Assembly: GCA_964607705.1 (NCBI GenBank)
Contig: CAZSLI010000002.1
Coordinates: forward strand, 2,791 to 66,790
Length of the DNA stretch: 64,000 bases
Direction of reading: 5' to 3'
Origin: an uncultured Eubacteriales bacterium
GTDB taxonomy: Bacteria; Actinomycetota; Coriobacteriia; Anaerosomatales; PHET01
In this document: one piece after another, positions 25,810 to 61,527 of the stretch
Layout: the number at the start of each line of letters is the position of its first letter
Numbering within the stretch: position 1 is the first letter of the stretch
Translations under genes and position numbers: made by a program
Notes under the pieces: model-generated
Told to the model about the DNA's origin: nothing
Seen by the model: the letters and a program-made list of their open reading frames with translations, nothing else
The model's database searches: none

Positions 25810-26253
25810 ATGCCGCGGATTGCCAGAGTCCTCGCCGCAGTGCTGCTGGGCTTCACTCTGATCGTGGTCGCTGCCTGCCGGGCATCAGGCCCCGAATATG
25901 TCAGCAATGGCAAGTCGTACTCGGCCACCTCGGTAATGAGGCTGCTCGATACGAAAGGACCCGAGGGGGCCGCGGTTGACGCGAACGAGGCCACCGATAG
26001 GCGTCACGACGCCCTCACAGCTCTCAGGGCGCAAGGCGGCGGGGCCGCCAAGGCGGCGACGCTGATAACGGCGTCGCTCCCGGCTGAGACGCGCGGAGTG
26101 CCCTACTACGCGGAGTGGGCCACATTCGACTCAACGCCCGCCCTGGTCGTGCTCGAGGTCACCGGCCGCAAGGGCGGCCCCTTGGCGGACCGGCGGGTCT
26201 GGGTGCTCGATAAGACGGGAGCCGTGCTCTTCTCGGGCATGGGGCGCAACTAG
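25810..26253 (+). CDS. putative lipoprotein (147 aa)
   Basis: The ATG at 25810 follows GGAGGGG. The N-terminus MPRIARVLAAVLLGFTLIVVAACRAS is a signal peptide with a lipobox-like VAAC. The upstream part of the track ORF overlaps the DUF62 gene antisense. Confidence 0.55.
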   Translation: MPRIARVLAAVLLGFTLIVVAACRASGPEYVSNGKSYSATSVMRLLDTKGPEGAAVDANEATDRRHDALTALRAQGGGAAKAATLITASLPAETRGVPYYAEWATFDSTPALVVLEVTGRKGGPLADRRVWVLDKTGAVLFSGMGRN

Positions 26254-26660
26254 GCGCAGAGCTGTCGCCTGTACTCCTCGCGCACGACCGGAGCCAACGA
26301 GGCGGTCCAGCCGCGCTCGATCTCGGCCCAGATGGCCTTCCCATCACGACCCGAATCACTGAGATCGGCTATCACTGAATCGATGACAAGCCTTGCGGCC
26401 CCTTCGGTGGTCCCATGGAGAGTCACGAGCCTGCGCCGCACCACCGCATCGAAGTAGCGGGCGGCGCGGCGCTCAACTTCTTGTGAGTACGTCCGCCCCG
26501 AGAAAGTGCGCGCCGTGACCTCGGCGGCATAGCCCACCAATGACTCGGGGGCTCCGTAGCGCTCGCCGGTCTCCTGGCGTTGAGCATCAAGTAGCGCGGT
26601 GAGCGATCGATATCGAGTGATGGTTCCCATGCGACCCTCCTGCGTGAAGTTCTCACGCAC
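26250..26660 (-). CDS. hypothetical protein (126-136 aa)
   Basis: Track ORF with reasonable composition. No recognisable motif. An alternative start at 26630 gives MGTITRY... Confidence 0.5.
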   Translation of the reverse strand: MRENFTQEGRMGTITRYRSLTALLDAQRQETGERYGAPESLVGYAAEVTARTFSGRTYSQEVERRAARYFDAVVRRRLVTLHGTTEGAARLVIDSVIADLSDSGRDGKAIWAEIERGWTASLAPVVREEYRRQLCA

Positions 26661-26683
26661 AAGGTAGCGCTGGGGTCTGACAT

Positions 26684-26923
26684 CTACTCCATAGGGAAGA
26701 TGACGGCCATGTTCTCGCGGTTCACCGCGACATAGGGTGGCCTGAAGAGCTCTGCGCCGGTCGACGCATCGAAGACTACCGCGTCAGTCACGGCAAGGAA
26801 GTCCTTCGCCTTGGAGTTCAGAGCGTCGGTCAGCCGGCTTCCCGCCAGCACGTGGATGTCGCCCTCGATGCGCCAACTTGCGACGACCATGATGCAGCGG
26901 ACTTTGTCCTTCGACGTGTACAC
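26684..26923 (-). CDS. small conserved-looking hypothetical protein (79 aa)
   Basis: Beta-rich sequence WRIEGDIHVLAGSRLTDALNSKAKDFLAVTDAVVFD... I cannot name the family reliably. Confidence 0.55.
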   Translation of the reverse strand: MYTSKDKVRCIMVVASWRIEGDIHVLAGSRLTDALNSKAKDFLAVTDAVVFDASTGAELFRPPYVAVNRENMAVIFPME

Positions 26924-26983
26924 GGCGCTCCCTTCGCAGGCGTCTCACTGCGAATCTAACTCATATGGCAGAGAACGGAAATG

Positions 26984-27712
26984 CTAGCCGCCGAACCGGG
27001 ACGCCGCCACGAGGAGGATTGTGCGCAACTGCGCAGCCAGCGCCACCTCTGCAAACGACAACGCGAGGGCGATGGCAGCCGGTGTCATGACTTCAACGAT
27101 GCGAGAGGCTCTTCGATCGAAGGCAGGGAACATCGCCACGATCACGAGATTGATACAGGTGAGAGTGAAGAGTACCGAGAGCGCGATCATGACGGGATAG
27201 CCGACGCCAAGATGCGGCAGCACGTACAGGATGACGACATACGACACCGGGATCGCTACTAGCCACGTAGCGAATTTCCGTGCAGGGTCAAGCACACGCT
27301 GTACCGTCGACCGCCGCCACAGTTCGTCGTTGAGCATCGCGACGATGAGAACCGCCGCCGAGAACCCCACTCCGAGACCCGTGATGAGCCTCAGCTCGTT
27401 GGTTGTCGTTCGGAATCCCCCGTACGAGCTCACGCCGTCCCATCCCATCAGGGCGACGAAGACGCCCATCACCGCCCAGACGTAGCCCCTGGGGAAGTCC
27501 CGCGGCCGCTCATTGCGGTGAAGCAGTGTGATGAGGCAGAAGCTCACTACGAAGCCGAGATAGATACCTGTGTCGCGCGCGCAGACAGGTGCCTGCACCC
27601 CGCCACCGAAGAACGAGCGCTCGGGAAGCTGATGACACAGGCCGTAGCCGAACCACTGAAGCACGGATTCAAGCACGCCGAGTCCTTTGGAACGAAGAAC
27701 GGCGGACCGCAT
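26984..27712 (-). CDS. DUF2085-family membrane protein
   Basis: 242 aa. CHQLPERSFF...PVCARDTGIYLG followed by five or six TM helices. Confidence 0.75.
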   Translation of the reverse strand: MRSAVLRSKGLGVLESVLQWFGYGLCHQLPERSFFGGGVQAPVCARDTGIYLGFVVSFCLITLLHRNERPRDFPRGYVWAVMGVFVALMGWDGVSSYGGFRTTTNELRLITGLGVGFSAAVLIVAMLNDELWRRSTVQRVLDPARKFATWLVAIPVSYVVILYVLPHLGVGYPVMIALSVLFTLTCINLVIVAMFPAFDRRASRIVEVMTPAAIALALSFAEVALAAQLRTILLVAASRFGG

Positions 27713-27736: not shown

Positions 27737-27813
<77 letters not shown>

Positions 27814-27950: not shown

Positions 27951-30104
27951 CTAGTTCAGCAGACCGCGCTTAGCCAGGTTCACGTGGCAGTTGGCGCAGA
28001 ACGTCGGCTGGTGGCAGTCGAAGCACGGATCGGCGCCGTTCTTCTTGACGATGTTCGGGTGGTAGCGAACCCACGGCTTGGTCGTCGAGGCACCCTCGTG
28101 GTGGCACGAGTTGCAGAAGTTCGGCTGGTGGCAGTTCGCGCAGGTCTTCTTATTGACCTTCTTCTCCGCGAACAGCTGAGCGTGCTGTCCACCGTTGTCC
28201 TTCGTGGGCTTCTCGCCTTCGGCAGGACCGAACCCGCTCGGGTGCGGCATCTCGAGCTTATGGCAGCTCGTGCAGAACTTGGCGTTCGGCAGCGTCGCGG
28301 CGTCACCCTTATGGCAGTACGTGCAGATCTCGCCGTCCTTGGTGTAGAGCTGGACGTGCTGCGCGTCCGTCGGGCTGAAGTCGCGAACGAACTTCTTCCC
28401 CTTGTGCGACGCAGGCACGACCTTGCGAGCGTTGTGACACTTAACGCAGTCGTCCTTGGTGTGGCACTTCTCGACACACGCACCTGCACCGTTCTTGTTC
28501 ACCGAACCGCCGTGAACCTTGAGCCACGGAGTAGAGGTCGACGATCCGACGTGGTGGCAGTTGCTGCACACTTCCTTGAACTGGTGGCAGTTCTGGCACG
28601 GCTTCGGATTCTTCTTGCTGCTCACGTGGTTCGTCTTGAACTCGGCCGGGTGAGGCATCTCCTGCTTGTGGCATGCCTTGCAGAACGGCGCGTTGGGGCC
28701 GCCCGGGCCGTGGCAGACCTCGCAGGACTCGATGGAGGCAAGGGCGCCGGTCGAGTGGCCCGCGGTCGGCTTCGCAGGAGACGAGCCATAGACGGTGAGC
28801 GCCTGTGGCGGCTTGCCGCGCGTCCAGGTCGAGCTCTTGTGGGAGTCGGGGAAGACCTTCTTGCCCGAGTGGCAATCCACGCAGAACTTGGTGGTGTGGC
28901 ACTGCGTCGTGCACGCCTTCACGCCACCCGCCTTGACGGCCTGCGGGTGCTGCTTGGTGGTCCAGTCCTCGGCCGGCTTGTATTCCCAGCCGCCCGCCTT
29001 CTCGCCGTGGTGGCACTTGTTGCAGAACTGCGGATCGGCCTTCGTGTGGCACATCTCGCACTTCTTCGGCTGTGCCTTCGAGATGACGGGGTGACCGTTC
29101 GGATCCTTGGGATCCTTGGGCTCCTTGAACTCGGCCGGGTGAGGCATAGGCATACCGTGGCAGTCGTTGCAGAACTGCTCGGTATGGCAGGTCGCGCAGT
29201 AGAAGACGCTCTCGACGCTCGGGAGCTCCTCGCCGATGCTCACAGTCTGCGAGCCGGCGTTCTCCTCCTGCTCCTTGATGACCTCGTTGACGTCCTTGGG
29301 AGCTTCGGCGGCTTCTTCGCCCTCAGCCGAAACAGACTCGGACGCGGCCTTGTCGGCCTCGGCCTTGAACTCCTTGGCCATCTCGGCGTGGTTCTTCGGC
29401 AGGAAGCCGGGCTGCTTGTGGCTCGGCGGAACGAGATCGAAGCCGGCCGGGTGACATGCGGCGCAGGCGCCCGGGGCAGCGGCCTCCTTCTCGAGGCTGT
29501 GACAGCGGAAGCAAGCGGTCATCGACATGAAGTTCGCGTGCTTCTCGGACTTCTCGCCGCCCTGCTTCTCCGGGTTGCTCAGTGAGGGCTCCCAGTCGCC
29601 GCTCTCGTTGTGAGCGATGCGGTTGTGGCAGACCGGACACGCGGCATTGATCTCCGAGTGAGCCTCGTGGTCGATCTTGATTCCCGGATTGGTGCTCACC
29701 TGCCTCGTGCTGAGGTTGTGGCACTGAACGCACTGCCTGCTGACCATCGTGAGCGACACTTCGCTCTCGGCGTTCAGCGGCAGCTCGTAGTTGTCGGTGA
29801 CCGTCATATACAACTCGCCCAAGGCCTCAGCCTTGTGCAGGATGAAGATGACCGGGTTGGCACCCACAGGCATGTGGCACGCCATGCAGCTGATCTCTGA
29901 GTGAGATGACCGCTGATAGGCGGTGATCGTGTCGTCCTGCACCTTGTGGCACCCCTCGGCGCAGAACCAACGAGTCGAAGTCACCCCCAGCGCAACGATC
30001 ATGACGGCGGCCAGCACCAAGACTGCAACACCAGTCCAGATGATGTACCTCGGCCGCCGAGCCGGATCTTTGAATCCGGCCAGTGAGATCTTGGCCATAT
30101 GCAT
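27951..30104 (-). CDS. membrane-anchored 24-haem c-type cytochrome (NapC/NirT/NrfH-like N-terminus fused to a triplicated hexahaem module)
   Basis: 717 aa with one N-terminal TM helix. I count 21 CxxCH and 3 CxxxCH motifs. The first about 170 aa (..FCAEGCH..SCMACH..CVQCH..CPVCHNRIAH) look NapC/NrfH-like. The second ATG (30098) has better RBS spacing. Confidence 0.9.
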   Translation of the reverse strand: MHMAKISLAGFKDPARRPRYIIWTGVAVLVLAAVMIVALGVTSTRWFCAEGCHKVQDDTITAYQRSSHSEISCMACHMPVGANPVIFILHKAEALGELYMTVTDNYELPLNAESEVSLTMVSRQCVQCHNLSTRQVSTNPGIKIDHEAHSEINAACPVCHNRIAHNESGDWEPSLSNPEKQGGEKSEKHANFMSMTACFRCHSLEKEAAAPGACAACHPAGFDLVPPSHKQPGFLPKNHAEMAKEFKAEADKAASESVSAEGEEAAEAPKDVNEVIKEQEENAGSQTVSIGEELPSVESVFYCATCHTEQFCNDCHGMPMPHPAEFKEPKDPKDPNGHPVISKAQPKKCEMCHTKADPQFCNKCHHGEKAGGWEYKPAEDWTTKQHPQAVKAGGVKACTTQCHTTKFCVDCHSGKKVFPDSHKSSTWTRGKPPQALTVYGSSPAKPTAGHSTGALASIESCEVCHGPGGPNAPFCKACHKQEMPHPAEFKTNHVSSKKNPKPCQNCHQFKEVCSNCHHVGSSTSTPWLKVHGGSVNKNGAGACVEKCHTKDDCVKCHNARKVVPASHKGKKFVRDFSPTDAQHVQLYTKDGEICTYCHKGDAATLPNAKFCTSCHKLEMPHPSGFGPAEGEKPTKDNGGQHAQLFAEKKVNKKTCANCHQPNFCNSCHHEGASTTKPWVRYHPNIVKKNGADPCFDCHQPTFCANCHVNLAKRGLLN
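27954..29207 (-). repeat. three tandem coding repeats (hexahaem modules, about aa 300-455, 456-590, 591-717)
   Basis: Each copy has three paired motifs. Pair A is CxxCH..FCxxCH followed by (E)MPHP(A/S)(E/G)F. Pair B is CxxCH..(F/V)CxxCHH(G/E/V). Pair C is C(x3 or x2)CH..(F/D)CxxCH. The MPHPAEFK / MPHPAEFK / MPHPSGF landmarks recur at aa 320, 483 and 619. Confidence 0.8.
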
Positions 30105-30272: not shown

Positions 30273-30734
30273 CTACGCTCGGACAGCGAGAATCAACGAG
30301 ACCTCTACCGGGGCACCGAGCGGAAGTTCCGCCACGCCGACTGCCTCGCGGGCGTGCATCCCCGCATCACCAAAGGCGGCGACAAGCACCTCGCTCGCAC
30401 CATCGATAGCCTGCGGCTGCGCAGTGAAACCGGGTGACGAAGCAACGTAGCCCGTCAGTTTGATGGCATACACCACATCGTCGAGGTCGCAGACGGTGGC
30501 TGCGGCAGCCAAAGCATTGAGGCAACACTGCCGTGCGCACTCCCGTGCCTGTTCCAGAGTGACCCCATCGCCGACGTGCCCCGCCGCAAGGAGCGCTCCG
30601 GCCTGCATCGGCAACTGTCCGGCGGTGAATACCATCGATCCCGTACTCACTGCAGGGACGTAGGAACCTGCGGGCCTGGGTGGCTCGGGCAGCACCAAGC
30701 CGGCAGCGGCGAGCCTGTCCTTGACCGTCGCCAC
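30273..30734 (-). CDS. RidA/YjgF-family reactive-intermediate deaminase
   Basis: 153 aa. LPEPPRPAGSYVPAV...VFTAGQLP... and the C-terminal ..ELPLGAPVEV.. pattern of the YjgF/UK114 family. Confidence 0.88.
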   Translation of the reverse strand: MATVKDRLAAAGLVLPEPPRPAGSYVPAVSTGSMVFTAGQLPMQAGALLAAGHVGDGVTLEQARECARQCCLNALAAAATVCDLDDVVYAIKLTGYVASSPGFTAQPQAIDGASEVLVAAFGDAGMHAREAVGVAELPLGAPVEVSLILAVRA

Positions 30735-30736
30735 GA

Positions 30737-31894
30737 CTAGCGCACCAAGGTGTCGGCCAGGCGGTTGAGCTCCGTGATGACGGCCTGGATCTGCCGAGAC
30801 GACTCGGCCGACTGTGTGGAGACCTGCGCCATCTCGCGCATGGACACGACCACCTGGTCGGATGCCGTGCGCTGCTGCTGGGTGGCGATGGAGATCTGCT
30901 TTGCCGAGTCGGTCGTCTCTTCGACCTGCGAGACGATCCGGTCGAGGGCGTCGGCCGTCCGACGTGCGAGCGCCTTGCCCTCGTCCACCTTCTTCTGCGC
31001 CTTCTCGGTCGACATGACGAGGGAGCTCGCGCTCGACTGGATCTCTCGGACGACGCGACCGATCTCAGAGGTCGACTCGGTGACCGAGTCGGCGAGCTTG
31101 CGGATCTCCTCGGCGACGACGGCGAAACCCTTGCCCGCCTCACCGGCGCGCGCAGCCTCGATGGCCGCGTTCAGTGCGAGGATCTTGGTCTGCTCGGCGA
31201 TGTCGTCGATGATGACGAGCACTCGCCCGATCTCCTGGCTGCGCTCGCCGAGCTGGAGGATCCGGTCGGACGCGGCCTGCGTCGTCTCACGTATCTCGTC
31301 GATGCCGGTGGCAGTGTCTGCGACCGACTGCATGCCCTCCTCGGCGCTCGCGAGAGTGCGCTCGGCGATGGTGGCGACGGCCTGCGAGTTGTCGGCGATC
31401 TGCTTCGAGGTCTGGGCGAGCTCCTCGAGCGTGGCGGATGTCTCGGTGACTGCGGCTGCCTGCTGGGCGGCCCCCGATGCCTGCTGCTCGGTAGCCGCGA
31501 GCACTTCAGTCGTCAGGCTGCGCACGTCGTTGTTGACGGCCTTCGCCTGGTTGAGCATGCCGGTGACGTCGCCGAAGAGCCTGAGGACCTCATCCTGCAG
31601 GTCGTCGCAGTCTCCACGAGAGTCGACCGCGATCCCCATGCGCTCATGAGCTTGGGTGAGGACGCCGACGAACATGGACTCGCCCACCCGTGCAGCGACG
31701 ATAGCGCACGCCACTCCGAGACCCGCACCTGCAACAAGGCACAGCGCCCAGAAGACGATCCATGAGGTGGTGCTTTGCGCATCGACGAAGAAACTCGCCA
31801 CGAGGGGGAAGGCGATACCCACGATGACTCCGGCGCCGCCCATGTAAAGAACCAGCTTGCGCCGAGTCTTGCCCCTACCGCGTTGCTGCGCCAC
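30737..31894 (-). CDS. methyl-accepting chemotaxis protein with two TM helices and no sizeable sensor domain
   Basis: Conserved MA signalling hairpin ([35 protein letters not shown]). Two TM helices are separated by about 8 residues. I place the start at GTG 31894 after GAGGGG. The track ORF extends to 31984. Confidence 0.85.
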
Positions 31895-32070
31895 GTGCCC
31901 CTCATTTCCCCTGCCGACCGTCCAGCACATAGTAGCAGCGTGATGGCAGCACGGCAGCGACGGCGTTCCACTGCTTGGATTCATCGGTGCGCACCCGTTG
32001 CCAAACGATACCCCATGGGGTATATTCCGACAGCGAACGATGCGGCGGACACCAGGACGGCAGGAGGCCC

Positions 32071-32642: not shown

Positions 32643-33788
32643 ATGAACACAGTCAGCCTCGCGCGATGCGACACGTATCACCCCGATGAAGTGAATCGAG
32701 CACTTGACGCCGCCCTCTCCCCACTCGGGGGGATGGCGGCGTTCGTATCTCCCGGCCAAAGCGTACTCATCAAGGTCAACCTGCTGTCCCGAGCGCTTCC
32801 GGAGCGCGCCGTCATGACGCACCCGGATGTCGTGCGCGGGATCATCCGAGCGGTTCGGGCAGCCGGGGGCGTCCCTCGCGTGGGCGACAGCCCCGGTGGC
32901 CCCAACACTGCCGGACAGTGGCGACGCATCGTCCACGACAGCGGCATAGCCGAGGTCTGTGCCGACGAGGGATGCGAGCTCCTGCTGCTCGACGATGAAT
33001 GCACCCGTGTGACGAGCCCTTCGGGCGGCCTGTACGGTTCATTCACCATCGGGAAGGCGGTCGCGGACGCCGACGTCCTCATCACGGTTCCGAAGTTCAA
33101 GACGCACGGCTTCATGATGTTCACTGGCGCGGTCAAGAACCTCTTCGGCTGCATTCCGGGACTTGAGAAGGCCCAGTACCACCTCAAGGTGCCGGACCGG
33201 GACGACTTCGCGGACATGTTGGTCGACCTCATGCTTGCTTGCCGACCGGCTCTCGCCATCATGGACGCCGTGGTCGGCATGGAGGGAGAGGGGCCCGCTG
33301 GTGGGGTTCCTCGGCAGGTAGGCGCGTTGATCGCTTCGGCCGACTGTGTCGCGCTGGACGTGGTCGCCTCGGCCATGGCCGGCCTCGAGCCGCTCGAGGT
33401 GTACACCAACCGCGCAGCGGCCCGCCGAGGAATCGGACCGTCGTCAGTCGACGAAGTCGACGTGGTGGGCGCGGACTGGCGCTCGCTCGCTCCCGACGGT
33501 TTCGCACTTCCGGCGCGCGACCTCACGGCGCGCATGCCCGCATGGCTGGCGCCCCGGCTTCGCGGCTGGACGACCGCGCGGCCCGTCTTGGAGCGAGCGC
33601 AGGACTGTACGCGATGCGGTACGTGTGGAAAGGTGTGCCCGGTGGAGGCGATCGTCGTCGATGCCAAGGGGCCACACTTCGACCGCGAGAAATGCATCCG
33701 GTGCTACTGCTGCCAGGAGCTCTGTCCGCCGCAGGCTATCGGCCTCACGGTGCCACCGCTCGCGCGACTGCTCTCGAAGCGACGCTGA
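32643..33788 (+). CDS. DUF362-domain protein with C-terminal 2x[4Fe-4S] ferredoxin domain
   Basis: 381 aa. VLIKVNLLS...KFKTHGFMMFTGAVKNLFGCIPG..KAQYH (DUF362), then CTRCGTCGKVCP and CIRCYCCQELCP. Confidence 0.85.
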   Translation: MNTVSLARCDTYHPDEVNRALDAALSPLGGMAAFVSPGQSVLIKVNLLSRALPERAVMTHPDVVRGIIRAVRAAGGVPRVGDSPGGPNTAGQWRRIVHDSGIAEVCADEGCELLLLDDECTRVTSPSGGLYGSFTIGKAVADADVLITVPKFKTHGFMMFTGAVKNLFGCIPGLEKAQYHLKVPDRDDFADMLVDLMLACRPALAIMDAVVGMEGEGPAGGVPRQVGALIASADCVALDVVASAMAGLEPLEVYTNRAAARRGIGPSSVDEVDVVGADWRSLAPDGFALPARDLTARMPAWLAPRLRGWTTARPVLERAQDCTRCGTCGKVCPVEAIVVDAKGPHFDREKCIRCYCCQELCPPQAIGLTVPPLARLLSKRR

Positions 33789-47754: not shown

Positions 47755-49071
47755 CTAGTCGACCCGGAACCGGTGAACGGTCTCGTCGAGACGCTGCGCC
47801 ATGTCGGCGAGATCCTGGGCCGACGCGGTGATCTCCTGCATACAGGCCGTCTGCTCTTCGGCAGCGGCGGCGGTCTCTTCGGCGGAAGCGGCGTTCTGCT
47901 CGACCACCGCAGCGATCTCGTGCATCGCCCGGTCGACATCCGTCGTGCGTCGCGCCTGCTCGCTCATCGACTTGGCGATCTCGTCGGCCAGCTGGCTCGT
48001 GCGGGAAACGGCGTCACTGATCGCGCGGAGCGCCTTGCCGCTGCGGCCGACGACCTCGCTGCCGACCTCGACCTCGCGCGTACCGATCTCCATGTATCGC
48101 ACGGCCTTGGCTGTCTCCGCCTGAACGTCTTGGATGAGCTCTCCGATCCGCTCGGCCGCCTGCCCAGAGCCCTCGGCCAACTTGCGGACCTCCTCGGCGA
48201 CGACCGAGAACCCGCGGCCCGACTCGCCGGCACGCGCGGCCTCGATCGCTGCGTTGAGCGACAGGAGGTTGGTCTGGTCGGCGATGTTGGTGATGACGTC
48301 GACGATGCCGCCGATCTGCTCGCTTCGCTTGCCGAGGACTTCGACCGAGGATGCGAGCGTCTCGATGGCCTGCTGGACCTCGGCGATCTTCACGATCGCC
48401 TGCTCGGTCGCCTCCTCGCCAGCGCGAGCGACCTGTGCGGCCTCGAGACTCGTGGTCGCCGCCTCGGTCGCCTTTGACGCGACCTGCTCGGTTGTGGAGG
48501 TCATCAGGGCGACAGCGCGGCTGGTATCGTCGACCTTGCGCGACTGCAGCTCGGCACCATGCGCTATCTGCTGCACCGACGAAGAGATCTCGATCGTCGA
48601 TGAGTTGATCTCCTCGGAAGACGCCGAGAGTTCGGATGCGGCCGCTGACACCGAATCGGCCGAGCGTCGCACCTGCGACGCGATGCCGGAGAGCGACTCG
48701 ATGAGCAGGTTGCATTCGCGAGCAAGCTCGCCGATCTCGTCATTGCGCTGGATCCGGGCGCGTACGCGCAGATCCCCCTCGCCGGCCTGGATCATCGTGC
48801 CGCCCAGGTCGCGAAGCGGACGGAGGATCCTGTCCTTGAACTGGATGCGCCACAGCCAGGTCCCGACGGGCGCCATGAGGAACATCGCGACCGCGCCCAC
48901 CGCCATGACCGGCGCCATCTCGGCCAACGAGAGGTCGAGGAAGTAGTAAGCGAAGATCGCCGTCAGAATCAGTCCGAACAAGACCGCCGGTCCGATCGCC
49001 ACCCAGGTGAGCAGCGTAAAGATGAAGGACAGCCCGCCTCTGACGGTGCTATCCCTGTGTTCCTGCGCCAT
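47755..49071 (-). CDS. methyl-accepting chemotaxis protein (2 TM, HAMP, MA domain)
   Basis: 438 aa. HAMP ([21 protein letters not shown]) and the conserved hairpin [35 protein letters not shown]. Very short extracytoplasmic loop. Confidence 0.92.
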
Positions 49072-49121
49072 CTGGCTCGTTCCCCTCCGCGGCCCTTCCG
49101 GGCAGCTGACGTCCCCCCGGC

Positions 49122-49970
49122 CTAGTAGCGGACCGGCTTGCGATAGATACGCTCTCTGCCATCTATCGGCTCAAAGCGCTCCGCGGCTTGAGGGCTCAAC
49201 TTCTCACTGCGCCCCAAGACGAGATAGCCTCCGCGCGCCAACGCTCCCCAAAACGTTTCGAGCGCTCGCGCCTGCTGCTCTCGATCGAAGTAGATGAACA
49301 CGTTGCGGCACATGATGAGATCGATCGATCGCTGTGGCGCCGGATCGAACAGGCTCGCTTCGCGGAACCGTACGATCTTGCGTACCGACGGGTCCATCTC
49401 GAACGCTTCGCGATTAACCGGCTGGGTGAATCGTACCTGATAACTGGCCGGGATGTGGCGCAGCCGCTGGTTGTCGAAGACGCCCAGCTCGGCCCTGCGC
49501 AGCGCCTCCCGGTCGAGGTCCGTCGCCAAGACTGACATCAGGTAGCGTGACTCGTCCTTCCCAACCGCGTCGAGCAGCATCATGGCGAGCGAATAGGGCT
49601 CTTCTCCGGTAGCACACGCCGCAGACCAAAGGCGGATCGTTCGACTTCGCCCCTCGGACTTCGACTCGAGCATGGGCCGCATGACATTACGCTTGATCGA
49701 GTCCCACACGACCTGGTCGCGGAAGAACTCGGTGACGTTGATCGTCAGCGTGTCCAAGAGGCGTTCGTACTCGTTCGGATCCGACTCTAGGACATCGGCG
49801 TACTGCCTGAACGAGTGCAGGTCGAGGGCGCGCAGCCGCGTGGTGATGCGCCGCTCCACGTACGCTCGACGATACAGCGACAAGTCGATGCCGCGTGCAT
49901 CGTTGACCTTGTCGATGAGTCGGTCGAGGCTGCCGCGATAGACTCCTGAGGAACCGCCCTCTTCCACGCG
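49122..49970 (-). CDS. cheR: chemotaxis protein methyltransferase CheR
   Basis: CheR N-domain ([16 protein letters not shown]) and SAM-MTase domain ([31 protein letters not shown]). I place the start at GTG 49970 after GGAGGGGGG. The track ORF extends to 50024. Confidence 0.88.
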
Positions 49971-50025
49971 CCCCCCTCCGACAGACACAACCGACCCCGC
50001 GTGTGAAGTGCTAGATATGCGCACC

Positions 50026-51194: not shown

Positions 51195-54100
51195 CTAGCG
51201 GACGTACACCGTGCGGAACGTCGAGTACGACGGCGCGTGAGCGGTGTCCGCGTGGTATGCCCGTATGATCCACTTGCCCGTGTAGGGCAGCGACACGTAG
51301 CCGTAGTAGCGGCTGTAGCTGCTGTAGTTCTTCACCTTCACGCTGATCGTCTTGCGCAACTTGGGCTTGCCGCTCTCATAGCGGTAGCACTGGAGCTTGA
51401 CTGCGTAGGTGCCCGAGGAGTGGCGCGGCTTCAGGTTGCCGTACGTGCTGAAGCGCACGTTGCGTCCGGTTCTTGACGGCGCGTACGGCGTCGAGAGATA
51501 GACCTTCGGAGTCACTGCGAACACCTGCGTCGCTGCCGCGGCCTCGAAATCGGCGTCCGCATCGGTCGTCAGGCGGTACGAGGTCTTCACGGTTGGCTTG
51601 ACCGTGAAAGACACCTTGCCGGCTGCATCGGTCTGGCGGCTGTCGACTCTCCGCCAGCTCCCGGACAGGTACTCAAGGAAGACGGTCTTGCCCGGCAACG
51701 CTCCACTCTCCACGGCGCTCCACGAACCGCTGATCGCCGCGCTGCCGCCGTACGCGATGACGCTCGCCGAAGAAGCGCCCGAGAGCTGCGTCGACTCCTT
51801 GGGGTCTACCGAGAGACGTGTGGCACGAGCGGACTCGTTCCCCGCACCGTCGTACGCCACGAACTCCACCTTCACGGGGCGATAGCCCGACCACGACACC
51901 TCGTCGGGCGTCCAACTGGTCTCCCAGCTGCCGTCCGGGTTCACGGTCACCGGGAGTCTGATGGGCTCAGGCTGCCAACCGGCGCCGCTCCAGTACATTG
52001 CGTCCCGGGTGATCGCTATGCTTGCCGCGTCGATTCCGGACCGTGAGTCTGATGCTGTCCCGGAGAGCGTGACGGTTGCCTCGCGCGTCAGCGGGAACGG
52101 CACGTTCGCTTGAGCGATAGTGGCGCTGGGCGCCGAGGTGTCGAGCACTATCGAGTCGGAGGCCGTGGCCCCCACGGTATGGCTTGCGTCAGACGAGAAC
52201 CGGAACGTCACCGTCCGCGTACCCTCGCCTGCGCCTAGTGACAGCGTAGCCGCCGAGGACCCGCCGTAAGGCATCCACTCGCTGGGCGCACCGCCGTCAA
52301 CCTGATAGCTCACCGAAGTCGCTCCGACCGCGGACACCGTCGCCGTCACCGTCTGCGAGCCGGTGTACCGATCTCCGCCGTTGAGAGCGATCTGCGCTGC
52401 GATCGGCACCGCCGAGACGACGCCGGGCGTGGTGACTGAGACGAGTCCGTAGCCGTCGGTCGCATGCGCCTCGAGGGTGACCATCTCGCCGGGGATGATC
52501 TGATCGGGCGTCAGCGTCCAATCGTAGTACCAGCTGGCCCCGCCCGTGACAGGGAGCCAGACCTCGGCCCCGTTGTTCCAGCCGCTCCCGTTCCAACAAC
52601 GACCGGAACTCCGCCTTATCAGCACCTCGACGCCTTGAACCGTGCCTCCCGTGTCTGCGGCTGTACCCGAGATACGTGTGGTGTTTGCCGACAGCCTGAA
52701 TCCCGCCGCAGGTGAACTGATCGCGACGCTGGGGACCGACGTGTGCAGGACGATGTCGTCACTGGCCGAGGCCTCTACGCTGGCCCCTCCGGTGGACGAG
52801 AAGCGGAACCAGACGCGCTTCACGCCGTCACCGGCAGGCAGCGTGATACCGGTCGCCGAGGCGTACGGCTCCCACGCCGAGAAGGCGCTGCCGTCGAAGC
52901 TCATCTGCATGTGGGTGGGCGTGCCGGTGGTCGCCACGGACGCGATGATGCCGCGCGTCGTGGTGTAGGCCGCACCGGCTTGCAGTGAGACGGCGGCGGC
53001 GATGCCGACGCTCGAGTCCCTCTGGGCACTCGTCCCTTGCAGCCCCACGCCATCGGTCGCCCTGGCCGTCACCGAGACGATGTAGCCCGCGAGCTGATCC
53101 GTCGGCGGGACCGCCCAGTCGTACGACCAGCCGATGCCGGTCATCGGTAGCCAGAAGTCACCGGGCGTCCAGGCGAGGCCATTCCAACTACGCCCGTCCG
53201 AGCGGCGGATGCGCAGCTCCGTGGACGATATGATGCCGTCGACATCTGACGACGTACCGGATACGTGGACGAGCGGTGTGTTGAGCGAGAAGCCGGAGGC
53301 GGGAGTGGCCAACGCCACTTCGGGAATGCTGGTATGCAGAAGGATCGAGTCCGAGGCCGTAGCCTCGACACTGGCCCCGCCGGTGGACGAGAGCTCGAAA
53401 ATGACCGTCTTGGTGCCGTCGCCCGACGGGAGTGACACGGCGGCACTCGGAGCGTAGTCCTGCCAGCCCGTGAAGGTTGCTCCGCTGTCCACGCTCCACC
53501 GCATCTTGTTGGGAGTGCCCGTGGTGGCGAGGGATGCGGTGACTCCGGTGCTCGTCGTGTACGCCGCCCCGCCATTCAACGAGACGGCCGCCGCCACCGA
53601 GACGCTCGATGAGACCGTCGCCGCCGAGCCGACGAGTCCAACCATGTCTGTCGCGCGCGCCGAGATGGAGATGATCTGACCGGCGGCGAGTTGTCCTGCT
53701 GAAGGAGCCCAGCGGTACGACCAGTTGCCCGTTCCGGTCGCCGGGATCCAGGATGTTGCACTGCTCCATCCCGAGCCGGTCCAGGTGTAGCCGTCCGACC
53801 GTGTGATGAGCACTTCGACCGAGGTCAGGCTGCCTCCAGCGTCTGCCGCCGTCCCCGTGATGGTCACCGGCACACTCGTGAGCGAGAACCCGTTCGCGGG
53901 CTGTGCGATCGCGACGGAAGGCACGCTCGTGTGCAGCAGGATGGAGTCGCTTGCCGTCGCATCAGTCGTACCGTCGCCTGCCGATGAGAACTCGAACGTG
54001 ACGGTCTTCACGCCATCACCCGCGGTCAAAGTGACCGCCTTGCTTGCCGAGTACGGCTCCCAAGCGTTGTAGCCCGTGCCGTTGTTCCAGCGCATGCGAT

Positions 54101-56081
54101 TCGGCGTGCCGGTCGTCGCGATCGACGCGACAACGGTAGTTCCGCTGGCATACGTGTCGCCCGTGTTGAGCGCCATCGAGGCCACGACGGGCACGCGTGA
54201 CGTCACGCCCGCACTCGAGCCGGTGAGCCCGGCCGCATCGACCGCGCGTGCGGTGAGCGTGACCGCCCGGCCGGAAGCACGAACCGACGCATCCGGAGTC
54301 CAAGCGAGCTGCCAAGTCGCATAACCATCGCTCGTCGTCACCGGCAGCCAGGTCTCCGTGGCAGTCCAAGCGGTGCCGTTCCACGTCAGGCCGTCAGCCC
54401 GCTGGACGCGAACCGACACACTTGACACAGCACCTACCGCGTCGAATGCCGTGCCGGCTACGGTGACCGGCCCGTTCAGCGAGAATGCCGTGCTGGGACT
54501 GGTGAGCGCGACCGACGGCGCCTGGGTGTCGAGCGTGATGCCGTCGGATGCGGTTGCGGCGATGGTGGCTCCGCCGTCCTTGGAGAACTGGAAGGTTACG
54601 AGCTTAGCGCCATCTCCCGGCGGGAGGACCACAGAGGCGGCGGTGGAGTACGTCGACCAGCCGGTCCATGACGCTCCCCCGTCGACCGACCAGCGCATGA
54701 CGCTCGCCCCGGGCGCCGAGATGCTCGCCTGGACGGTGCCTTGCGTGGTCGTGGCGGCACCGGCGGCGAGCGCCACCGAGGCGACCATCGGGACCTGCGA
54801 CGAGACGGTCCCGCTGACGGTCGTCAGGGGCGTACCGTCGGTGGCGCGCGAGGTGACGGACACGATCTGACCCGAAGCCAAGTCGGCGGCTGAGGGAGTC
54901 CATGAGTAGCTCCAGGTGCTCCAGTCGCCTGCCGCCCGGGGCTGCACGGCGAGCCAGGTATCGGCACTCGTCCATACACCAGGCGTGCCGGTGAAGCACT
55001 GGCCGTCAGCGCGGCGGATCCGCACTCCTACCGACCGTACTCCCGTGCCTATGTCCGACGCGGTGCCCGTGATGAGAACCGGGGATGACGAGAGCACGAA
55101 GTCCGCAGATGGAGAGGCCAAAGAGATGCCCGGCGGGTTCGAGGGGACACTGACTGTCACCTCGGACGAATGTCCGTAGGCGCCGTTGGCGTCCCACGTC
55201 TGCACTGAATAGCGGTACTGCCGGCCCTCGCCCCTGATCGGCTGGGACAGTGTCAGGTCGGCGGCGGCGCTTGAGACCGACGGCGTGATGTCGTTCCATG
55301 CGCTGCTTCCGCCGTCCGCCCACCATGCCTTATAGAGGATGGGACGGGTCTCGAGCGCTGTGGTCGTGGTTGACGAGTACGGCCGCTTCCATGACAGCTG
55401 CACCGCTGAAGTGCCCGCAACGGACGTGAACTCGCGCGGCGGCCCATACTTCCAGCCGAAGAACTCGACGTCATCGATCGTGGGACCCAGACCGTCAGCG
55501 TCCATGGGCTTGTTCTCGAAACGTATGCGCGCGTAGCCCGCGCGTCGCGAAAGGCCGTATGGCGAGCTGCCCAAGTCGTAGCTCACCTTGCGCCAGCTTG
55601 CCGACGTGCCAAGTCGCGCAGGAGCGGAGAACTGGCTGCCTGCGACGCCCCAGTTCGCATAGAAGTCGTCTGCGGCGCCCATGCTCGGATTGATGAAGTA
55701 GTAGCTCAGGTCGCCGGTGTAGTAGTCGGCCATCTGAGGAAGATCGAACCGGATCTCGCTGCTGGCGTAGTAGGAGTACCCGTAAGTCGGATAGGTGCTG
55801 GCTAGGAGTGTGTCGCTTCCGCTGCACCACAGGCCGGTGGACCCCCCGTACACGCTGTTCTTCTCGCTAGTGATGGGACCCCAGGTGACGGCTTCGCTGC
55901 CATCGGCCCATGGCTGGGAGAACATCGTGTACTTGGGAGTGGTTCCGGGCTCGAATCCCTCACGACCGAGCAGCGAGACGCCGGACGTCGCAGGCCCGGC
56001 GAATGCGGGCGCAGGGATACACAGCGCCGCCGCGAGAGCGACCACCAGTAACGTTCTGAGAGAACGTGCCGGACGCTGCAC
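51195..56081 (-). CDS. 1628-aa secreted repetitive cell-surface protein (lectin-like N-domain, FN3, five and a half tandem double-Ig units, two C-terminal Ig-like domains)
   Basis: Signal peptide MQRPARSLRTLLVVALAAALCIPAPAFA. FN3-like aa 216-312. Repeats are delimited by ASD(S/G/D)I.L(H/D)T..P(S/E)VA. Thr/Ser/Gly/Ala-rich with no Cys-rich or haem motifs. Confidence 0.85.
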   Translation of the reverse strand: MQRPARSLRTLLVVALAAALCIPAPAFAGPATSGVSLLGREGFEPGTTPKYTMFSQPWADGSEAVTWGPITSEKNSVYGGSTGLWCSGSDTLLASTYPTYGYSYYASSEIRFDLPQMADYYTGDLSYYFINPSMGAADDFYANWGVAGSQFSAPARLGTSASWRKVSYDLGSSPYGLSRRAGYARIRFENKPMDADGLGPTIDDVEFFGWKYGPPREFTSVAGTSAVQLSWKRPYSSTTTTALETRPILYKAWWADGGSSAWNDITPSVSSAAADLTLSQPIRGEGRQYRYSVQTWDANGAYGHSSEVTVSVPSNPPGISLASPSADFVLSSSPVLITGTASDIGTGVRSVGVRIRRADGQCFTGTPGVWTSADTWLAVQPRAAGDWSTWSYSWTPSAADLASGQIVSVTSRATDGTPLTTVSGTVSSQVPMVASVALAAGAATTTQGTVQASISAPGASVMRWSVDGGASWTGWSTYSTAASVVLPPGDGAKLVTFQFSKDGGATIAATASDGITLDTQAPSVALTSPSTAFSLNGPVTVAGTAFDAVGAVSSVSVRVQRADGLTWNGTAWTATETWLPVTTSDGYATWQLAWTPDASVRASGRAVTLTARAVDAAGLTGSSAGVTSRVPVVASMALNTGDTYASGTTVVASIATTGTPNRMRWNNGTGYNAWEPYSASKAVTLTAGDGVKTVTFEFSSAGDGTTDATASDSILLHTSVPSVAIAQPANGFSLTSVPVTITGTAADAGGSLTSVEVLITRSDGYTWTGSGWSSATSWIPATGTGNWSYRWAPSAGQLAAGQIISISARATDMVGLVGSAATVSSSVSVAAAVSLNGGAAYTTSTGVTASLATTGTPNKMRWSVDSGATFTGWQDYAPSAAVSLPSGDGTKTVIFELSSTGGASVEATASDSILLHTSIPEVALATPASGFSLNTPLVHVSGTSSDVDGIISSTELRIRRSDGRSWNGLAWTPGDFWLPMTGIGWSYDWAVPPTDQLAGYIVSVTARATDGVGLQGTSAQRDSSVGIAAAVSLQAGAAYTTTRGIIASVATTGTPTHMQMSFDGSAFSAWEPYASATGITLPAGDGVKRVWFRFSSTGGASVEASASDDIVLHTSVPSVAISSPAAGFRLSANTTRISGTAADTGGTVQGVEVLIRRSSGRCWNGSGWNNGAEVWLPVTGGASWYYDWTLTPDQIIPGEMVTLEAHATDGYGLVSVTTPGVVSAVPIAAQIALNGGDRYTGSQTVTATVSAVGATSVSYQVDGGAPSEWMPYGGSSAATLSLGAGEGTRTVTFRFSSDASHTVGATASDSIVLDTSAPSATIAQANVPFPLTREATVTLSGTASDSRSGIDAASIAITRDAMYWSGAGWQPEPIRLPVTVNPDGSWETSWTPDEVSWSGYRPVKVEFVAYDGAGNESARATRLSVDPKESTQLSGASSASVIAYGGSAAISGSWSAVESGALPGKTVFLEYLSGSWRRVDSRQTDAAGKVSFTVKPTVKTSYRLTTDADADFEAAAATQVFAVTPKVYLSTPYAPSRTGRNVRFSTYGNLKPRHSSGTYAVKLQCYRYESGKPKLRKTISVKVKNYSSYSRYYGYVSLPYTGKWIIRAYHADTAHAPSYSTFRTVYVR
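52134..55136 (-). repeat. five tandem ~199-codon (~0.6 kb) coding repeats, with a partial sixth copy reaching about 51807
   Basis: Unit boundaries are at aa 316, 521, 720, 919 and 1117, and the last full unit ends at aa 1316. Each unit has two parts. The first is an Ig-like domain with ..(I/V)(T/S)GTA.D..G.(V/L)..V.V.I.R.DG..W.G..W. The second is a ..(L/I)N(G/T)G..YT....V.......G.P..M.......(F/Y)..W..Y......L..GDG.K.V.F.FS domain. Confidence 0.8.
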
Positions 56082-56095
56082 TTACCCACTACCCC

Positions 56096-56896
56096 TTAGC
56101 GCGCTGCGGGCACCTTCGACGCGATGTCGACTCCTAGCGCCTTGACGCTTGCCGGCTTAGTACCGGGCCGAACGGTGACCACCACTTCGAACGCGTACCG
56201 GCCGCGCGCGAATGCCACCGCCGCTACCCCTGCACCATTCGTGCCGAAGTAGCCTGAATCCACTATTCCTACACGCACGGGCTGAGCATCGACCGAATAC
56301 GGCCGCTTGACCGCGTTCTTCACGTAGGCCTGCGCCTTCGCTTCGGATCCCATGTCGTGTGCATAGACAGCAGCACGCGTCACGGTCGCGCGCGCCGCTC
56401 GGTCCTTCAAAGACGGCTCGAACGTGACCAGGGCATCAGAGCCCTGTACGGTCACACGGCCCTTGCTCCACGTCCCGTAAGACGAAGGAAGCAGAGTCCC
56501 GAGGTCCTTGACCGCCTTGGCGTACGGTCCGGCCGGCGGTGCCGCTGGTTCTTCGGCTGGTTGACCGCCCGAGACAGGGGTCTCGGTCGCGGGGGGCGCC
56601 TGCGCCGTATCGATCACACGCTTCGCAGTAGCGTTGTTCGGGTCCGCCTTGAGCGCCTTGTTCGCGAGCGCAAGGGCCGTCGCCGTCTGGTTCTGTGAGA
56701 GCGCCGCATCCGCGCTCGACGCAAGCTTCTCGGCCTCGAGGGTACCCTGCGTCACCGGTGCCGGTTCCTGCTGCTTCTTCGGCGCCGACAACGCTGACAT
56801 GCCGAAGATGACGGCCGCCAGACCCACAACCGCAGCACCCGCGATCGCGAGTTGCTTCCAGGTGAACTTAGGGCTGGCGTTCGGGTCCTTGGCCAT
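56096..56896 (-). CDS. single-pass membrane-anchored protein of unknown function (266 aa)
   Basis: ATG after GAGGGAG. One TM helix (LAIAGAAVVGLAAVIFGMSAL), a Pro/Ala/Glu linker and an extracytoplasmic globular domain of about 130 aa. It lies 21 nt after the 14-haem gene and 14 nt before the giant gene. Confidence 0.6.
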   Translation of the reverse strand: MAKDPNASPKFTWKQLAIAGAAVVGLAAVIFGMSALSAPKKQQEPAPVTQGTLEAEKLASSADAALSQNQTATALALANKALKADPNNATAKRVIDTAQAPPATETPVSGGQPAEEPAAPPAGPYAKAVKDLGTLLPSSYGTWSKGRVTVQGSDALVTFEPSLKDRAARATVTRAAVYAHDMGSEAKAQAYVKNAVKRPYSVDAQPVRVGIVDSGYFGTNGAGVAAVAFARGRYAFEVVVTVRPGTKPASVKALGVDIASKVPAAR

Positions 56897-56917
56897 GGGA
56901 ATGACGCTCCCTCGATA

Positions 56918-59917: not shown

Positions 59918-61314
59918 TCTGCGGCGACCCCTTTCTCAGCGGCGAGCGCAGCAGACACGACGGCGGGGTCGGGCCTCTCGGCCCCTTCCCTTGCGGCGAC
60001 GTCTATCGCGACCGACAGAGCAGCGGCGGCGACGTCGAGCCGAGTGCCAGCGGGCACGGCGGCGAGAAGCTCATGGGTCCACACGGGGGGCTCAGCGTCT
60101 ACCGACGCCGAAGCGATCCACTCCTCGACGATATCGCGGTCGAAGACGGCGTCGCGCGCGGAAACGGTCTCAAGCTCGTCGTAGCGCCATGAGACCCGCC
60201 GCGCCGCAGCGAAGGCCTCAGCGACCTCCGGAGCGATGTCCGGCCGAAGGATGAGCATGAGACCGCCGAAGTCCTTCAGTGCCCAACGCAGAGAGGTCAG
60301 AGTGTTGACGATCTTGAGTCGCAGATCCGCGGGCACCGTCGGCCAGATCTCGAAACGGTCGAACATGACGGCGACCGCACGTATGCGCGGCGAAGCGAAC
60401 TTCACGAGCGCCACGAGTGTCTTGCTCGGCGCCTTCGAGACCTTGAGCTCCTCGGCCATCGACGATCGGCCCTGGGCCTGATAGGCCCTGACACCTCGTG
60501 CGACGACGGGTGAGAGATTCTTCTTGAGATAGGCGACAAGGTAGTCGCCGAGCAGCGACTCCACGTCCACAGGCTGAGCGTCGTCCGCAGCCGGGAGCGC
60601 AGTCTCGTCCACGTCGCCGAGCGGCGTGACGAAAGCGGCGGCCATCGGGTCGTCCGGGGAGTCCTCGGAGGCCTTCAGCGACTCCTCGCCCTCGGCCGGA
60701 TCGGTCTCCAGGCGATCGATACGCGCGGTGGACACGCGCATGAGCGCCTCGAGGTCCTCGGCTCCCTCGCGTGACGCAAGCGGCTCGCCGAAGATGCGCC
60801 GGGCGTAACCAGCAGGGTCCTCGGCCACGTCGGTTGCGACCGACGCGACGTCGAAGCCGGCCTCTGTGAGCGCCACCCACTCGGGCAGTGCCTCATCGGG
60901 AGTCGCAAGAGCGGCCTGGAGCCACGTGCCGATGGTCAGGTCCGGCTGACGCGCAGCCACCCACTCGGCTGCGGAATGCAGGACCGCCCGGACGCGCCCG
61001 ATGCGCATCATGTCCAGTGGCACGTAGAGCTGCATGATGCCGGGGACCGCCTCATCGGTGGCGAGCGCCCGCAGCGCAGGGGCAAGCGCCTGCACCGCGT
61101 AGATGGCGGGCAGGTCGCCCTTTTCCACGACGGTCGGACGGTGATCGGGGTCGGACGCGAGCACGTTCACGGCCGAAAGTAGCCGGTACGACGCGGCGAC
61201 GACCGACAGGCGCATACCATCGGAGTCGGTGGTGTCTTCTTGAGGGAGAGACAGCGGGTTGCCGAGCAGCCCAAGCGTGTCGAATGCGGGCGTCACAGCC
61301 TCGCGAGGTTCCAT
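59914..61314 (-). CDS. unknown 466-aa protein without signal peptide, translationally coupled to the 14-haem cytochrome gene
   Basis: The ATG at 61314 lies 8 nt after AAGGAG. The track ORF starts 3 codons earlier at a GTG. The stop TGA overlaps the GTG start of the next gene (GTGA). The protein is acidic and Ala/Leu-rich with no Walker A motif. Confidence 0.6.
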   Translation of the reverse strand: MEPREAVTPAFDTLGLLGNPLSLPQEDTTDSDGMRLSVVAASYRLLSAVNVLASDPDHRPTVVEKGDLPAIYAVQALAPALRALATDEAVPGIMQLYVPLDMMRIGRVRAVLHSAAEWVAARQPDLTIGTWLQAALATPDEALPEWVALTEAGFDVASVATDVAEDPAGYARRIFGEPLASREGAEDLEALMRVSTARIDRLETDPAEGEESLKASEDSPDDPMAAAFVTPLGDVDETALPAADDAQPVDVESLLGDYLVAYLKKNLSPVVARGVRAYQAQGRSSMAEELKVSKAPSKTLVALVKFASPRIRAVAVMFDRFEIWPTVPADLRLKIVNTLTSLRWALKDFGGLMLILRPDIAPEVAEAFAAARRVSWRYDELETVSARDAVFDRDIVEEWIASASVDAEPPVWTHELLAAVPAGTRLDVAAAALSVAIDVAAREGAERPDPAVVSAALAAEKGVAAE

Positions 61315-61460
61315 GCAGTGCACTCCTTACCGGTGGGGCGCGCGAGACCTGCCGGGGTCCCTTGGAGGACGCGTCCTCTGTCCAGCTCGAATTATAGCGG
61401 GATATGGGGTTTTGCACCTGCTGTTTGAGAACTCCGTGCCATCTGGAACGGGTTCACGAA

Positions 61461-61494
61461 GAAGGCCCCGACCGGTTTCCCGATCGGGGCCTTC
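61461..61494 (-). terminator. hairpin after the OmcS-like cytochrome gene
   Basis: GAAGGCCCCGA-(12 nt)-TCGGGGCCTTC, an 11-bp stem 34 nt after the stop at 61528. Weak U tract (TTCGTG) on the minus strand. Confidence 0.5.
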
Positions 61495-61527
61495 GCTCAC
61501 GCCATCAGGCGTTTTGCCACAGACGAA

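Follow-up and report, generated by a model that had tools for sequence, protein, structure and literature searches.

How electrons cross the thick wall of monoderm Actinobacteria is, to our knowledge, poorly understood, with Thermincola (Firmicutes) the only worked model, and one gene in a 64,000-nucleotide stretch of DNA from an uncultured member of the Anaerosomatales (Coriobacteriia; contig CAZSLI010000002.1; the whole stretch is called the window here) raises the question of whether a single polypeptide might carry them outwards from the quinone pool. The gene (27951..30104; coordinates are those of the window, and features lie on its minus strand unless marked (+)), characterised by translation of its open reading frame (ORF) and a motif count, encodes a c-type cytochrome with 24 haem motifs. 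We hold it probable (about 0.68) that this N-in, monotopic protein is an electron conduit between the quinone pool and the cell wall or surface, possibly a bidirectional one. The direct basis for this reading comprises motif content, conservation, head homology, triplication, modularity, conservation of the locus and published induction of an orthologue; haem occupancy, the quinol reaction, the assignment of histidines to haems, an extended shape, the identity of partners and the way in which electrons flow are what we infer.

Haem motifs, membrane anchor and hexahaem modules

An earlier note on this DNA had described a 717-residue ORF with 21 CxxCH and 3 CxxxCH motifs, and our recount agrees (the variants being CAEGCH at residue 48, CTTQCH at residue 398 and CVEKCH at residue 543). 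All 48 cysteines fall inside the 24 motifs (direct count; the histidines total 49), a pattern that chance scatter of motifs would not explain, and the GC content at third codon positions (0.87) is that of real genes of the window (65% GC). Translation probably starts at 30098 rather than 30104, because a GGAG ribosome-binding site lies 9 nt before the ATG at 30098 and 3 nt before that at 30104, the N-terminus MAK is common to all homologues, and a database protein of 100% identity (P0001) is 715 residues long; the calculated mass of the 715-residue product is about 78 kDa as apoprotein and about 92.5 kDa with 24 haems. A hydropathy scan found one hydrophobic stretch in the protein, a signal-anchor transmembrane (TM) helix at residues ~21-43 (29976..30044; Kyte-Doolittle >2.5 over 19-residue windows; helix at residues 15-38 in an AlphaFold2 (AF2) model), with lysine and arginine residues on its N-terminal side and the first haem motif starting five residues past its end. 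This arrangement predicts an N-terminus inside the cell and haem domains on the outer side.

Residues 1-230 had been likened to NapC, NirT and NrfH (one TM helix, haem motifs up to CPVCHNRIAH, then two more), and the likeness holds: in a Pfam search set beforehand as a refutation test, Cytochrom_NNT (PF03264) scored 50.9 bits against a cutoff of 24.1, matching residues 25-166 over profile positions 16-170 of 174. The six-haem head (residues 44-240; 29385..29975), recognised by this match, by alignment with NrfH (2j7a_C) and by a Cx3CH motif at haem 1, has four haem sites collinear with those of the NapC/NirT family (residues 48, 73, 125 and 156, the last being CPVCHNRIAH), two extra ones at residues 198 and 214, and then two trailing histidines, H229 and H239; its end, CxxCH...VPPSHK, is the same as the ends of modules 1 and 2 described below. 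The NapC/NirT pattern is four canonical CxxCH sites within about 150 residues, but here the first motif is Cx3CH in 120 of 120 full-length homologues (48-74% identity; the set used for all conservation counts below), and this invariance at the haem of a putative quinol site would be an unexplored variation of NapC/NirT chemistry.

NrfH was also the sole PDB sequence matched by the protein (phmmer, E = 1.9e-5), and the alignment places its K82 on K91 and its D89 on E97, both of which are invariant in the homologues (120/120), the acidic residue being glutamate here and aspartate in NrfH. We take K82 and D89 to be residues of the quinol/HQNO (2-heptyl-4-hydroxyquinoline N-oxide) site beside haem 1 of NrfH, and the aligned K91 and E97 mark a putative quinol site beside haem 1 of the 24-haem protein. 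The methionine ligand of NrfH haem 1 (CXXCHXM) is missing, M49 being aligned with V55, which is invariant in the homologues. The head was ruled out as an NrfH or NapC equivalog by both NCBIfam cutoffs (scores given below) together with the absence of this methionine. The protein is a member of a distinct, uncharacterised clade of the NapC/NirT (Cytochrom_NNT) superfamily, found mostly in Coriobacteriia of the Anaerosomatales/OPB41 type.

Behind the head, the acidic linker seen earlier is a low-complexity spacer (residues 241-295; 29220..29384) with 16 aspartates and glutamates against 5 lysines and arginines, and with a predicted local distance difference test (pLDDT) score below 50 at residues ~257-287. 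Measured from H239 to C303, the spacer varies among homologues from 43 to 115 residues, with a median net charge of -8 and values down to -35. The remainder consists, as had been proposed, of three tandem six-haem units, which are 36-42% identical in pairs and share the landmark MPHPAEFK (residues 320 and 483) or MPHPSGF (residue 619): module 1 (residues 296-455; 28740..29219; pLDDT about 80-89), module 2 (residues 456-588; 28341..28739) and module 3 (residues 589-717; 27954..28340), all three defined by motifs and BLASTP. The motif count likewise bears out the description of the fifth motif as CxxxCH in modules 1 and 2 (CTTQCH and CVEKCH, respectively) but CFDCH in module 3. Similarity among the modules is strong (BLASTP E = 4e-15 to 2e-22 with composition correction or, uncorrected, 1e-22 to 1e-31; hhalign probability 99.7-99.9%), and each has its six motifs arranged as three close pairs, with the MPHP landmark after the second motif, CxxCHH as the fourth and a conserved W...H before the fifth. 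Haems are dense (one per 22-27 residues), and the modules, including modules 1 and 2, are joined by invariant 10-residue junctions; module 3 lacks a trailing histidine pair, and the protein ends 10 residues past its last haem motif.

The module is not a recognisable copy of the units of OmcS, MtrC, NrfB or c554. Its profile gave marginal matches only against PDB sequences (NrfA, E = 0.007), with no useful match to OmcS, MtrC or c554, and OmcS was not among the PDB matches at E <= 10. The Paired_CXXCH_1 family (PF09699), which the earlier note had suggested searching, fell short on the whole protein (16.7 bits against a cutoff of 20.6); against isolated modules, 15 of 30 matched at E <= 0.1 (best, 7.6e-6). 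The Pfam family Cytochrome_C7 matched residues 144-218 of the head (39.5 bits) and, weakly, half of the modules. Profile alignment of the head with modules 1 and 2 gave probabilities of 77-90% over 113-126 collinear columns, and with module 3 44% over 18 columns, against 0.4-14% over short stretches for unrelated multihaem segments of the window, which served as controls and were single sequences (hhalign throughout). These values are no more than suggestive of the head being a diverged fourth copy of the hexahaem module, given single-sequence controls and the bias that haem motifs introduce into alignments of this kind.

Haem ligands, reach and the modular series

All 24 haem sites (24/24) are conserved across the 120 homologues. 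The fifth sites of the modules vary in spacer length: 89 Cx3CH and 31 CxxCH in module 1; 100 and 20, respectively, in module 2; and, in module 3, 92 CxxCH, 12 Cx3CH and 16 with Cx5CH, Cx6CH or Cx10CH. Because Cx2CH and Cx3CH alternate at a fixed column while the cysteines and the histidine are retained, the variant sites are under selection. Such drift of the spacer alone is as expected for genuine haem-attachment sites and argues that the CxxxCH sites bind haem, as Cx3CH and Cx4CH sites do in cytochromes c3.

Exactly 23 histidines outside the motifs are invariant in 120 of 120 homologues, that is, n-1 for 24 haems, a number that fits 23 bis-histidine haems plus one haem without a distal histidine. 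A P.SH...H pair trails the head and each internal module and is absent after the last module, in 12-, 18- and 24-haem versions alike, and module 3 has four spare internal histidines, aligned with the first four of modules 1 and 2. On the simplest reading of this arrangement, the pair at the end of one unit supplies ligands to the first haems of the next module; each module would then receive six distal histidines and the six haems of the head five. By homology with NrfH and CymA, the haem left without a distal histidine is most likely haem 1, at the putative quinol site. Sharing of the pairs would also assign H229 and H239, on the N-terminal side of the spacer, to haems on its C-terminal side; in that case the spacer would form a surface loop instead of a tether and leave the haem chain unbroken. 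Occupancy of the 24 sites by haem is supported indirectly by the strict conservation of cysteine and histidine at every one of them and by the 23 candidate distal histidines.

Electrons might then move as follows. The six-haem head would sit at the outer surface of the cytoplasmic membrane and exchange electrons with menaquinol or menaquinone at haem 1 (Cx3CH, probably with no distal histidine), flanked by K91 and E97. Electrons would pass onward through a continuous haem chain to the three tandem six-haem modules, each linked to the unit before it by histidines which that unit contributes; this 18-haem arm would extend into or through the monoderm cell wall and hand over to cytochromes of the wall or surface, or else to acceptors outside the cell. 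NapC/CymA-type proteins work reversibly, and with a head of this type the same protein could also take electrons up.

How far such an arm might reach is constrained by analogy rather than by the model. The AF2 model, built on 58 sequences and without haems, has a mean pLDDT of 73 (mostly about 70-90 in the modules, 50-65 in the head and <50 in the spacer) and a predicted template modelling (pTM) score of 0.40, because of which the relative placement of domains is unreliable. Foldseek searches of the PDB, limited in sensitivity by the haem-free model, returned NrfH alone and weakly for the full-length structure (E = 3.7) and one meaningless match for a single module (E = 8.8), with no OmcS in either. 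An OmcS-like hexahaem unit of Thermincola covers about 5 nm, and wall thickness is given as 20-80 nm (PMC7911101). By that measure, three fully extended modules would span roughly 15 nm, or 20 nm with the head, at most, so that the "tens of nanometres" envisaged in the earlier note shrink to <=15-20 nm for 18-24 haems; as this lies at the low end of wall thickness, partners would probably still be needed.

The number of modules differs among relatives. A pattern scan of one genome per species of the Genome Taxonomy Database (GTDB) found relatives in at least 179 GTDB species, and the best 80 of these 179 are nearly all metagenome-assembled genomes (MAGs) that were recovered from groundwater, sediments and bioreactors and are assigned to uncultured Coriobacteriia, Anaerosomatales or 'Actinomycetota'; habitats across the family are groundwater, sediments and mud volcanoes. 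An exhaustive search with the module profile returned 2,074 representative clusters at E <= 1e-3 (649 at E <= 1e-10), with proteins of 118-1832 residues and up to 17 matched stretches each, and we read architectures in the best 150 matches. The head recurs in combination with one module (12 haems, as in a 397-residue paralogue), with two (18 haems; P0129, P0134 and P0137) and with three (24 haems). The 12-haem paralogue (locus L082, 4509-7194), which has the same head and linker, comes from a MAG that also holds a 24-haem copy (L008), and it stands directly downstream of a 484-residue protein with many CxxCH motifs, a short version within a cytochrome cluster.

Six more distant metagenome proteins (P0125, P0130, P0132, P0170, P0235 and P0256) also have an NNT-like head with a TM helix followed by copies of the same module, here 3-5 full ones with 28-32 motifs. 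They differ in head similarity (17-62 bits against 266-292 for close relatives), in having no Cx3CH site (one in P0235), and in taxonomy, which is different or unassigned (for example, Armatimonadota); their database labels are just 'NapC/NirT family' or 'cytochrome c3 family'. The same hexahaem module is also found in headless giants, P0168 and P0124 (1832 residues with 67 motifs and 1313 residues with 45 motifs, respectively). Given the 12-, 18- and 28-32-haem relatives, the 24-haem protein is one step of a modular series rather than a singular oddity. A literature search found no paper describing the 24-haem architecture.

Locus, expression and competing functions

The gene sits in a conserved block that runs, in order, PBP, DnaJ, DUF362-ferredoxin, methyl-accepting chemotaxis protein (MCP), (RidA), cytochrome, tRNA-Pro(CGG), DUF2085, DUF6812 and a small protein, and onward through SAM_HAT, HD, PNP, M50 protease, Rex, TatA, GreA and LysS. 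Neighbours were surveyed at 83 loci, with the loci assessable for each neighbour as denominators. Directly downstream is tRNA-Pro(CGG) (27737..27813; ARAGORN), found in 22 of the 22 homologous loci checked although the proteins are only 41-72% identical, an unusually stable junction. The DUF2085 membrane protein that comes next (26984..27712; PF09858, 86 bits) is a same-strand downstream neighbour in 69 of 70 loci, and the small DUF6812 protein (26684..26923; PF20660) occurs in 38 of 68; a 136-residue protein without Pfam hits follows the two (stretch 26250-27712). Upstream, 43 of 76 loci have a RidA/YjgF-family gene (30273..30734; Pfam) between the cytochrome and the MCP (30737..31984; MCPsignal), which is a same-strand upstream neighbour in 64 of 76. 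The MCP has a two-TM hairpin whose outside loop is about 7 residues long, and it lacks a periplasmic ligand-binding domain; homologues of it were confirmed in L001 and L027.

Other genes of the region include a DUF362 protein with a C-terminal 2x[4Fe-4S] ferredoxin domain (32643-33788, (+)), conserved on the opposite strand a few kilobases upstream in many loci and accompanied by small ferredoxin-like genes in L001 and L002, and a second MCP (with HAMP) plus CheR at 47755-50024, about 18 kb from the cytochrome. Between the upstream genes and the cytochrome lie a terminator-like hairpin and a gap of 168 nt, which together with the downstream tRNA suggest that the cytochrome is transcribed on its own; a scan for sigma-70 promoters upstream found none, a result that is uninformative at 65% GC in an actinobacterium. 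The fixed locus order points to an ancient, vertically inherited gene, and because the whole 20-kb region is syntenic, adjacency says little about function.

NrfH is the closest solved relative of the protein, and this neighbourhood bears on whether the cytochrome could instead be the quinol dehydrogenase of a soluble extracytoplasmic reductase, in the manner of NrfH-NrfA, with its 18 further haems as an electron store or docking platform. Such a role would find some support in the reported nitrite-reduction enzymes of Coriobacteriaceae sp. EMTCatB1, a relative discussed below, in the faint resemblance of the module profile to NrfA and in a compact packing compatible with the low pTM. We regard it as distinctly unlikely: neither the window nor any of the three homologous loci with gene tables has a reductase gene next to the cytochrome (no nrfA-type nitrite reductase gene flanks the cytochrome in the window, nor lies within about 8 kb or up to the contig end in L001-L003), the flanks identified in the 83 loci are MCP and RidA upstream and tRNA-Pro and DUF2085 downstream, the head misses the NrfH equivalog score and the CXXCHXM methionine, and one to three modules per head with fixed 10-residue junctions are better explained by length tuning.

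Expression data exist for an orthologue in EMTCatB1, which dominated a thermophilic electromethanogenic biocathode (PMC7943316). The orthologue (L027; 53% identity; PF03264, 56 bits) is locus tag 1d0898, assigned on gene-for-gene synteny over ten neighbouring tags: 1d0896 (dnaJ), 1d0897 (MCP), 1d0898 (multihaem cytochrome), 1d0899 (predicted membrane protein; DUF2085), 1d0900 and 1d0901 (hypothetical; 1d0900 being the DUF6812 counterpart by position and tblastn), 1d0902 (conserved protein, in the SAM_HAT position), 1d0903 (HD hydrolase), 1d0904 (pnp), 1d0905 (spoIVFB, M50 protease) and 1d0908 (greA). Its mean transcripts per million (TPM) were 2347 in closed circuit (1347 and 3347), 137 with BrES, the methanogenesis-inhibitor condition (108 and 167), and 130 in open circuit (136 and 123), and with four other highlighted cytochrome genes it ranked in the top 10% of transcripts (PMC7943316). 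The published values thus amount to an increase of about 17-fold on a poised, current-consuming cathode. The neighbouring 1d0900 had TPM of 1249, 151 and 318 in closed circuit, with BrES and in open circuit, respectively (PMC7943316); 1d0900 and 1d0901 rose 3- to 8-fold on the cathode alongside the cytochrome, and 1d0902 did not.

These data come from cells supplied with current, and the protein might accordingly be read as a dedicated uptake device, drawing on a cathode, Fe(II) or a partner cell at the wall for electrons that it passes to menaquinone and on to membrane oxidoreductases, as CymA/NapC in reverse. The authors of the biocathode study themselves proposed that the cytochrome accepts electrons from the electrode (PMC7943316), and the reversibility of NapC/CymA-type heads noted above would allow it. 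A device restricted to uptake nonetheless seems unlikely, the gene being core to at least 179 species whose cultured relatives reduce Fe(III), sulfur or thiosulfate, and the two closed-circuit replicates being widely spread (1347 and 3347). Sequence does not set the direction of flow, and the sole expression data concern inward flow. In the first cultured Anaerosomatales, H2 or formate supports growth together with Fe(III), sulfur or thiosulfate, and 17-18 multihaem cytochromes are encoded (PMC9686372); the main text of that paper gives this protein no separate treatment, and the names Anaerosoma tenue and Parvivirga hydrogeniphila were not found among the homologue listings searched.

The upstream MCP, with its lack of a periplasmic domain and its same-strand position in 64 of 76 loci, also raises the idea of a redox antenna for taxis, in which the cytochrome would signal the extracellular or quinone-pool state to this sensor-less receptor and carry no main respiratory current. 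The MCP of EMTCatB1 (1d0897) did rise about 3-fold with the cytochrome, but the 20-kb synteny that holds the two together also includes implausible partners (SAM_HAT, PNP and PBP), which makes adjacency a weak argument, and the hairpin and 168-nt gap stand between them. A transcript in the top 10% suits a bulk carrier better, 24 haems are excessive for sensing, and we consider an antenna role highly improbable.

Set against the quinone-to-surface conduit that we favour are several points, of which the first concern the head: the NrfH equivalog TIGR03153 reached 49.9 bits against a cutoff of 134.2, and the NapC/NirT subfamily TIGR02161 reached 18.6 against 310.6. For every family member, haem occupancy and quinol activity rest on sequence. 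A rod-like shape is unsupported by the model (head pLDDT 50-65; pTM 0.40), and the variable acidic spacer could break the haem chain if the proposed sharing of histidines is wrong. In the window and in the three homologous loci with gene tables, the gene lies outside any cytochrome cluster. The expression evidence consists of two replicates per condition from one electron-uptaking organism and includes no mineral reducer. Finally, cytochrome sets are similar in Fe(III)-reducing and non-reducing Anaerosomatales isolates (PMC9686372), so that such genes alone do not predict Fe(III) reduction.

The earlier note had also suggested the protein as an inner-membrane entry point for the cytochrome system at 51-64 kb of the window. 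That cluster lies 21 kb from the 24-haem gene, which sits in a separate syntenic block, and the genes of the region (51195-64000) resemble an operon. First comes a large subunit of a [NiFe] hydrogenase (C-terminus DPCIACAVH), whose gene runs off the window end; then a secreted, signal-peptide-bearing six-haem cytochrome (61528-62817); a 469-residue protein that matched no Pfam family; a 14-haem cytochrome (56918-59917) with Paired_CXXCH and FG-GAP repeats; and a TM-anchored 266-residue protein followed by a 1628-residue Big_7 protein. No NapC/NirT-type protein is encoded in the 51-64 kb region, which makes a quinone link from elsewhere plausible. The hydrogenase upstream of secreted cytochromes suggests a route from H2 to cytochromes that may bypass quinones and feed the cluster independently.

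Comparison with known systems

If the conduit reading is right, a single polypeptide of this family would combine the point of entry from the quinone pool with an 18-haem wire. As a core, vertically inherited gene of the cosmopolitan subsurface OPB41/Anaerosomatales, it would offer a single-gene target for extracellular electron transfer in Coriobacteriia; its series of 12, 18 and 24 haems on one head would provide a natural system for length tuning of haem wires, and a scaffold with about 22 residues per haem would be of interest to bioelectronic design. A more far-reaching possibility is that the protein is a self-sufficient single-chain conduit from the quinone site to the outside of the cell wall, with its reach set by module number and with both mineral reduction and cathodic uptake as its tasks, which together with the conserved MCP, DUF2085 and DUF6812 neighbours that rise with it on a cathode forms a hitherto unrecognised electron-exchange and taxis unit core to the Anaerosomatales. 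We think this extension rather doubtful; were it true, the family would achieve in one covalent chain what OmcS-type wires achieve by polymerisation, with histidines shared across module boundaries and with 12, 18 or 24 haems, or up to about 32 in distant lineages.

Among characterised proteins, the head most resembles NrfH, NapC and CymA, which likewise have a single N-terminal TM anchor with a haem motif a few residues later, four collinear motifs and CxxCHxxxxH at haem 4 (CPVCHNRIAH here); a lysine and an acidic residue here also align with K82 and D89 of NrfH. Those proteins have 4 haems in about 160-200 residues, whereas this one has 24 in 715. Compared with NrfH in particular, haem 1 here has a one-residue insertion (Cx3CH), V55 in place of methionine at +2 and glutamate in place of D89, and no partner reductase gene adjoins the 24-haem gene.

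The closest functional parallel would be the chain proposed for Thermincola, in which ImdcA (membrane decahaem), PdcA (periplasmic decahaem), CwcA (wall hexahaem, modelled on OmcS) and OcwA act in series, and in the OmcS-based model of CwcA a histidine of the neighbouring unit is proposed to ligate a haem (PMC7911101). The two would have in common a quinone-pool-to-wall task in a monoderm cell, a hexahaem building block and histidines shared between units. They differ in that the head and three hexahaem units form one chain here and separate or polymerising proteins there, and in that no sequence or fold similarity to OmcS or CwcA was detected; the modules here are also far smaller (22-27 residues per haem). 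A further parallel in design is the Geobacter dodecahaem cytochrome GSU1996, a modular 'nanowire' of repeated trihaem c7 domains. In both proteins, tandem duplication of a small multihaem unit has given a long haem chain, but the protein described here is built from a hexahaem unit, carries a membrane anchor and a quinol-dehydrogenase-type head, and belongs to a different phylum.

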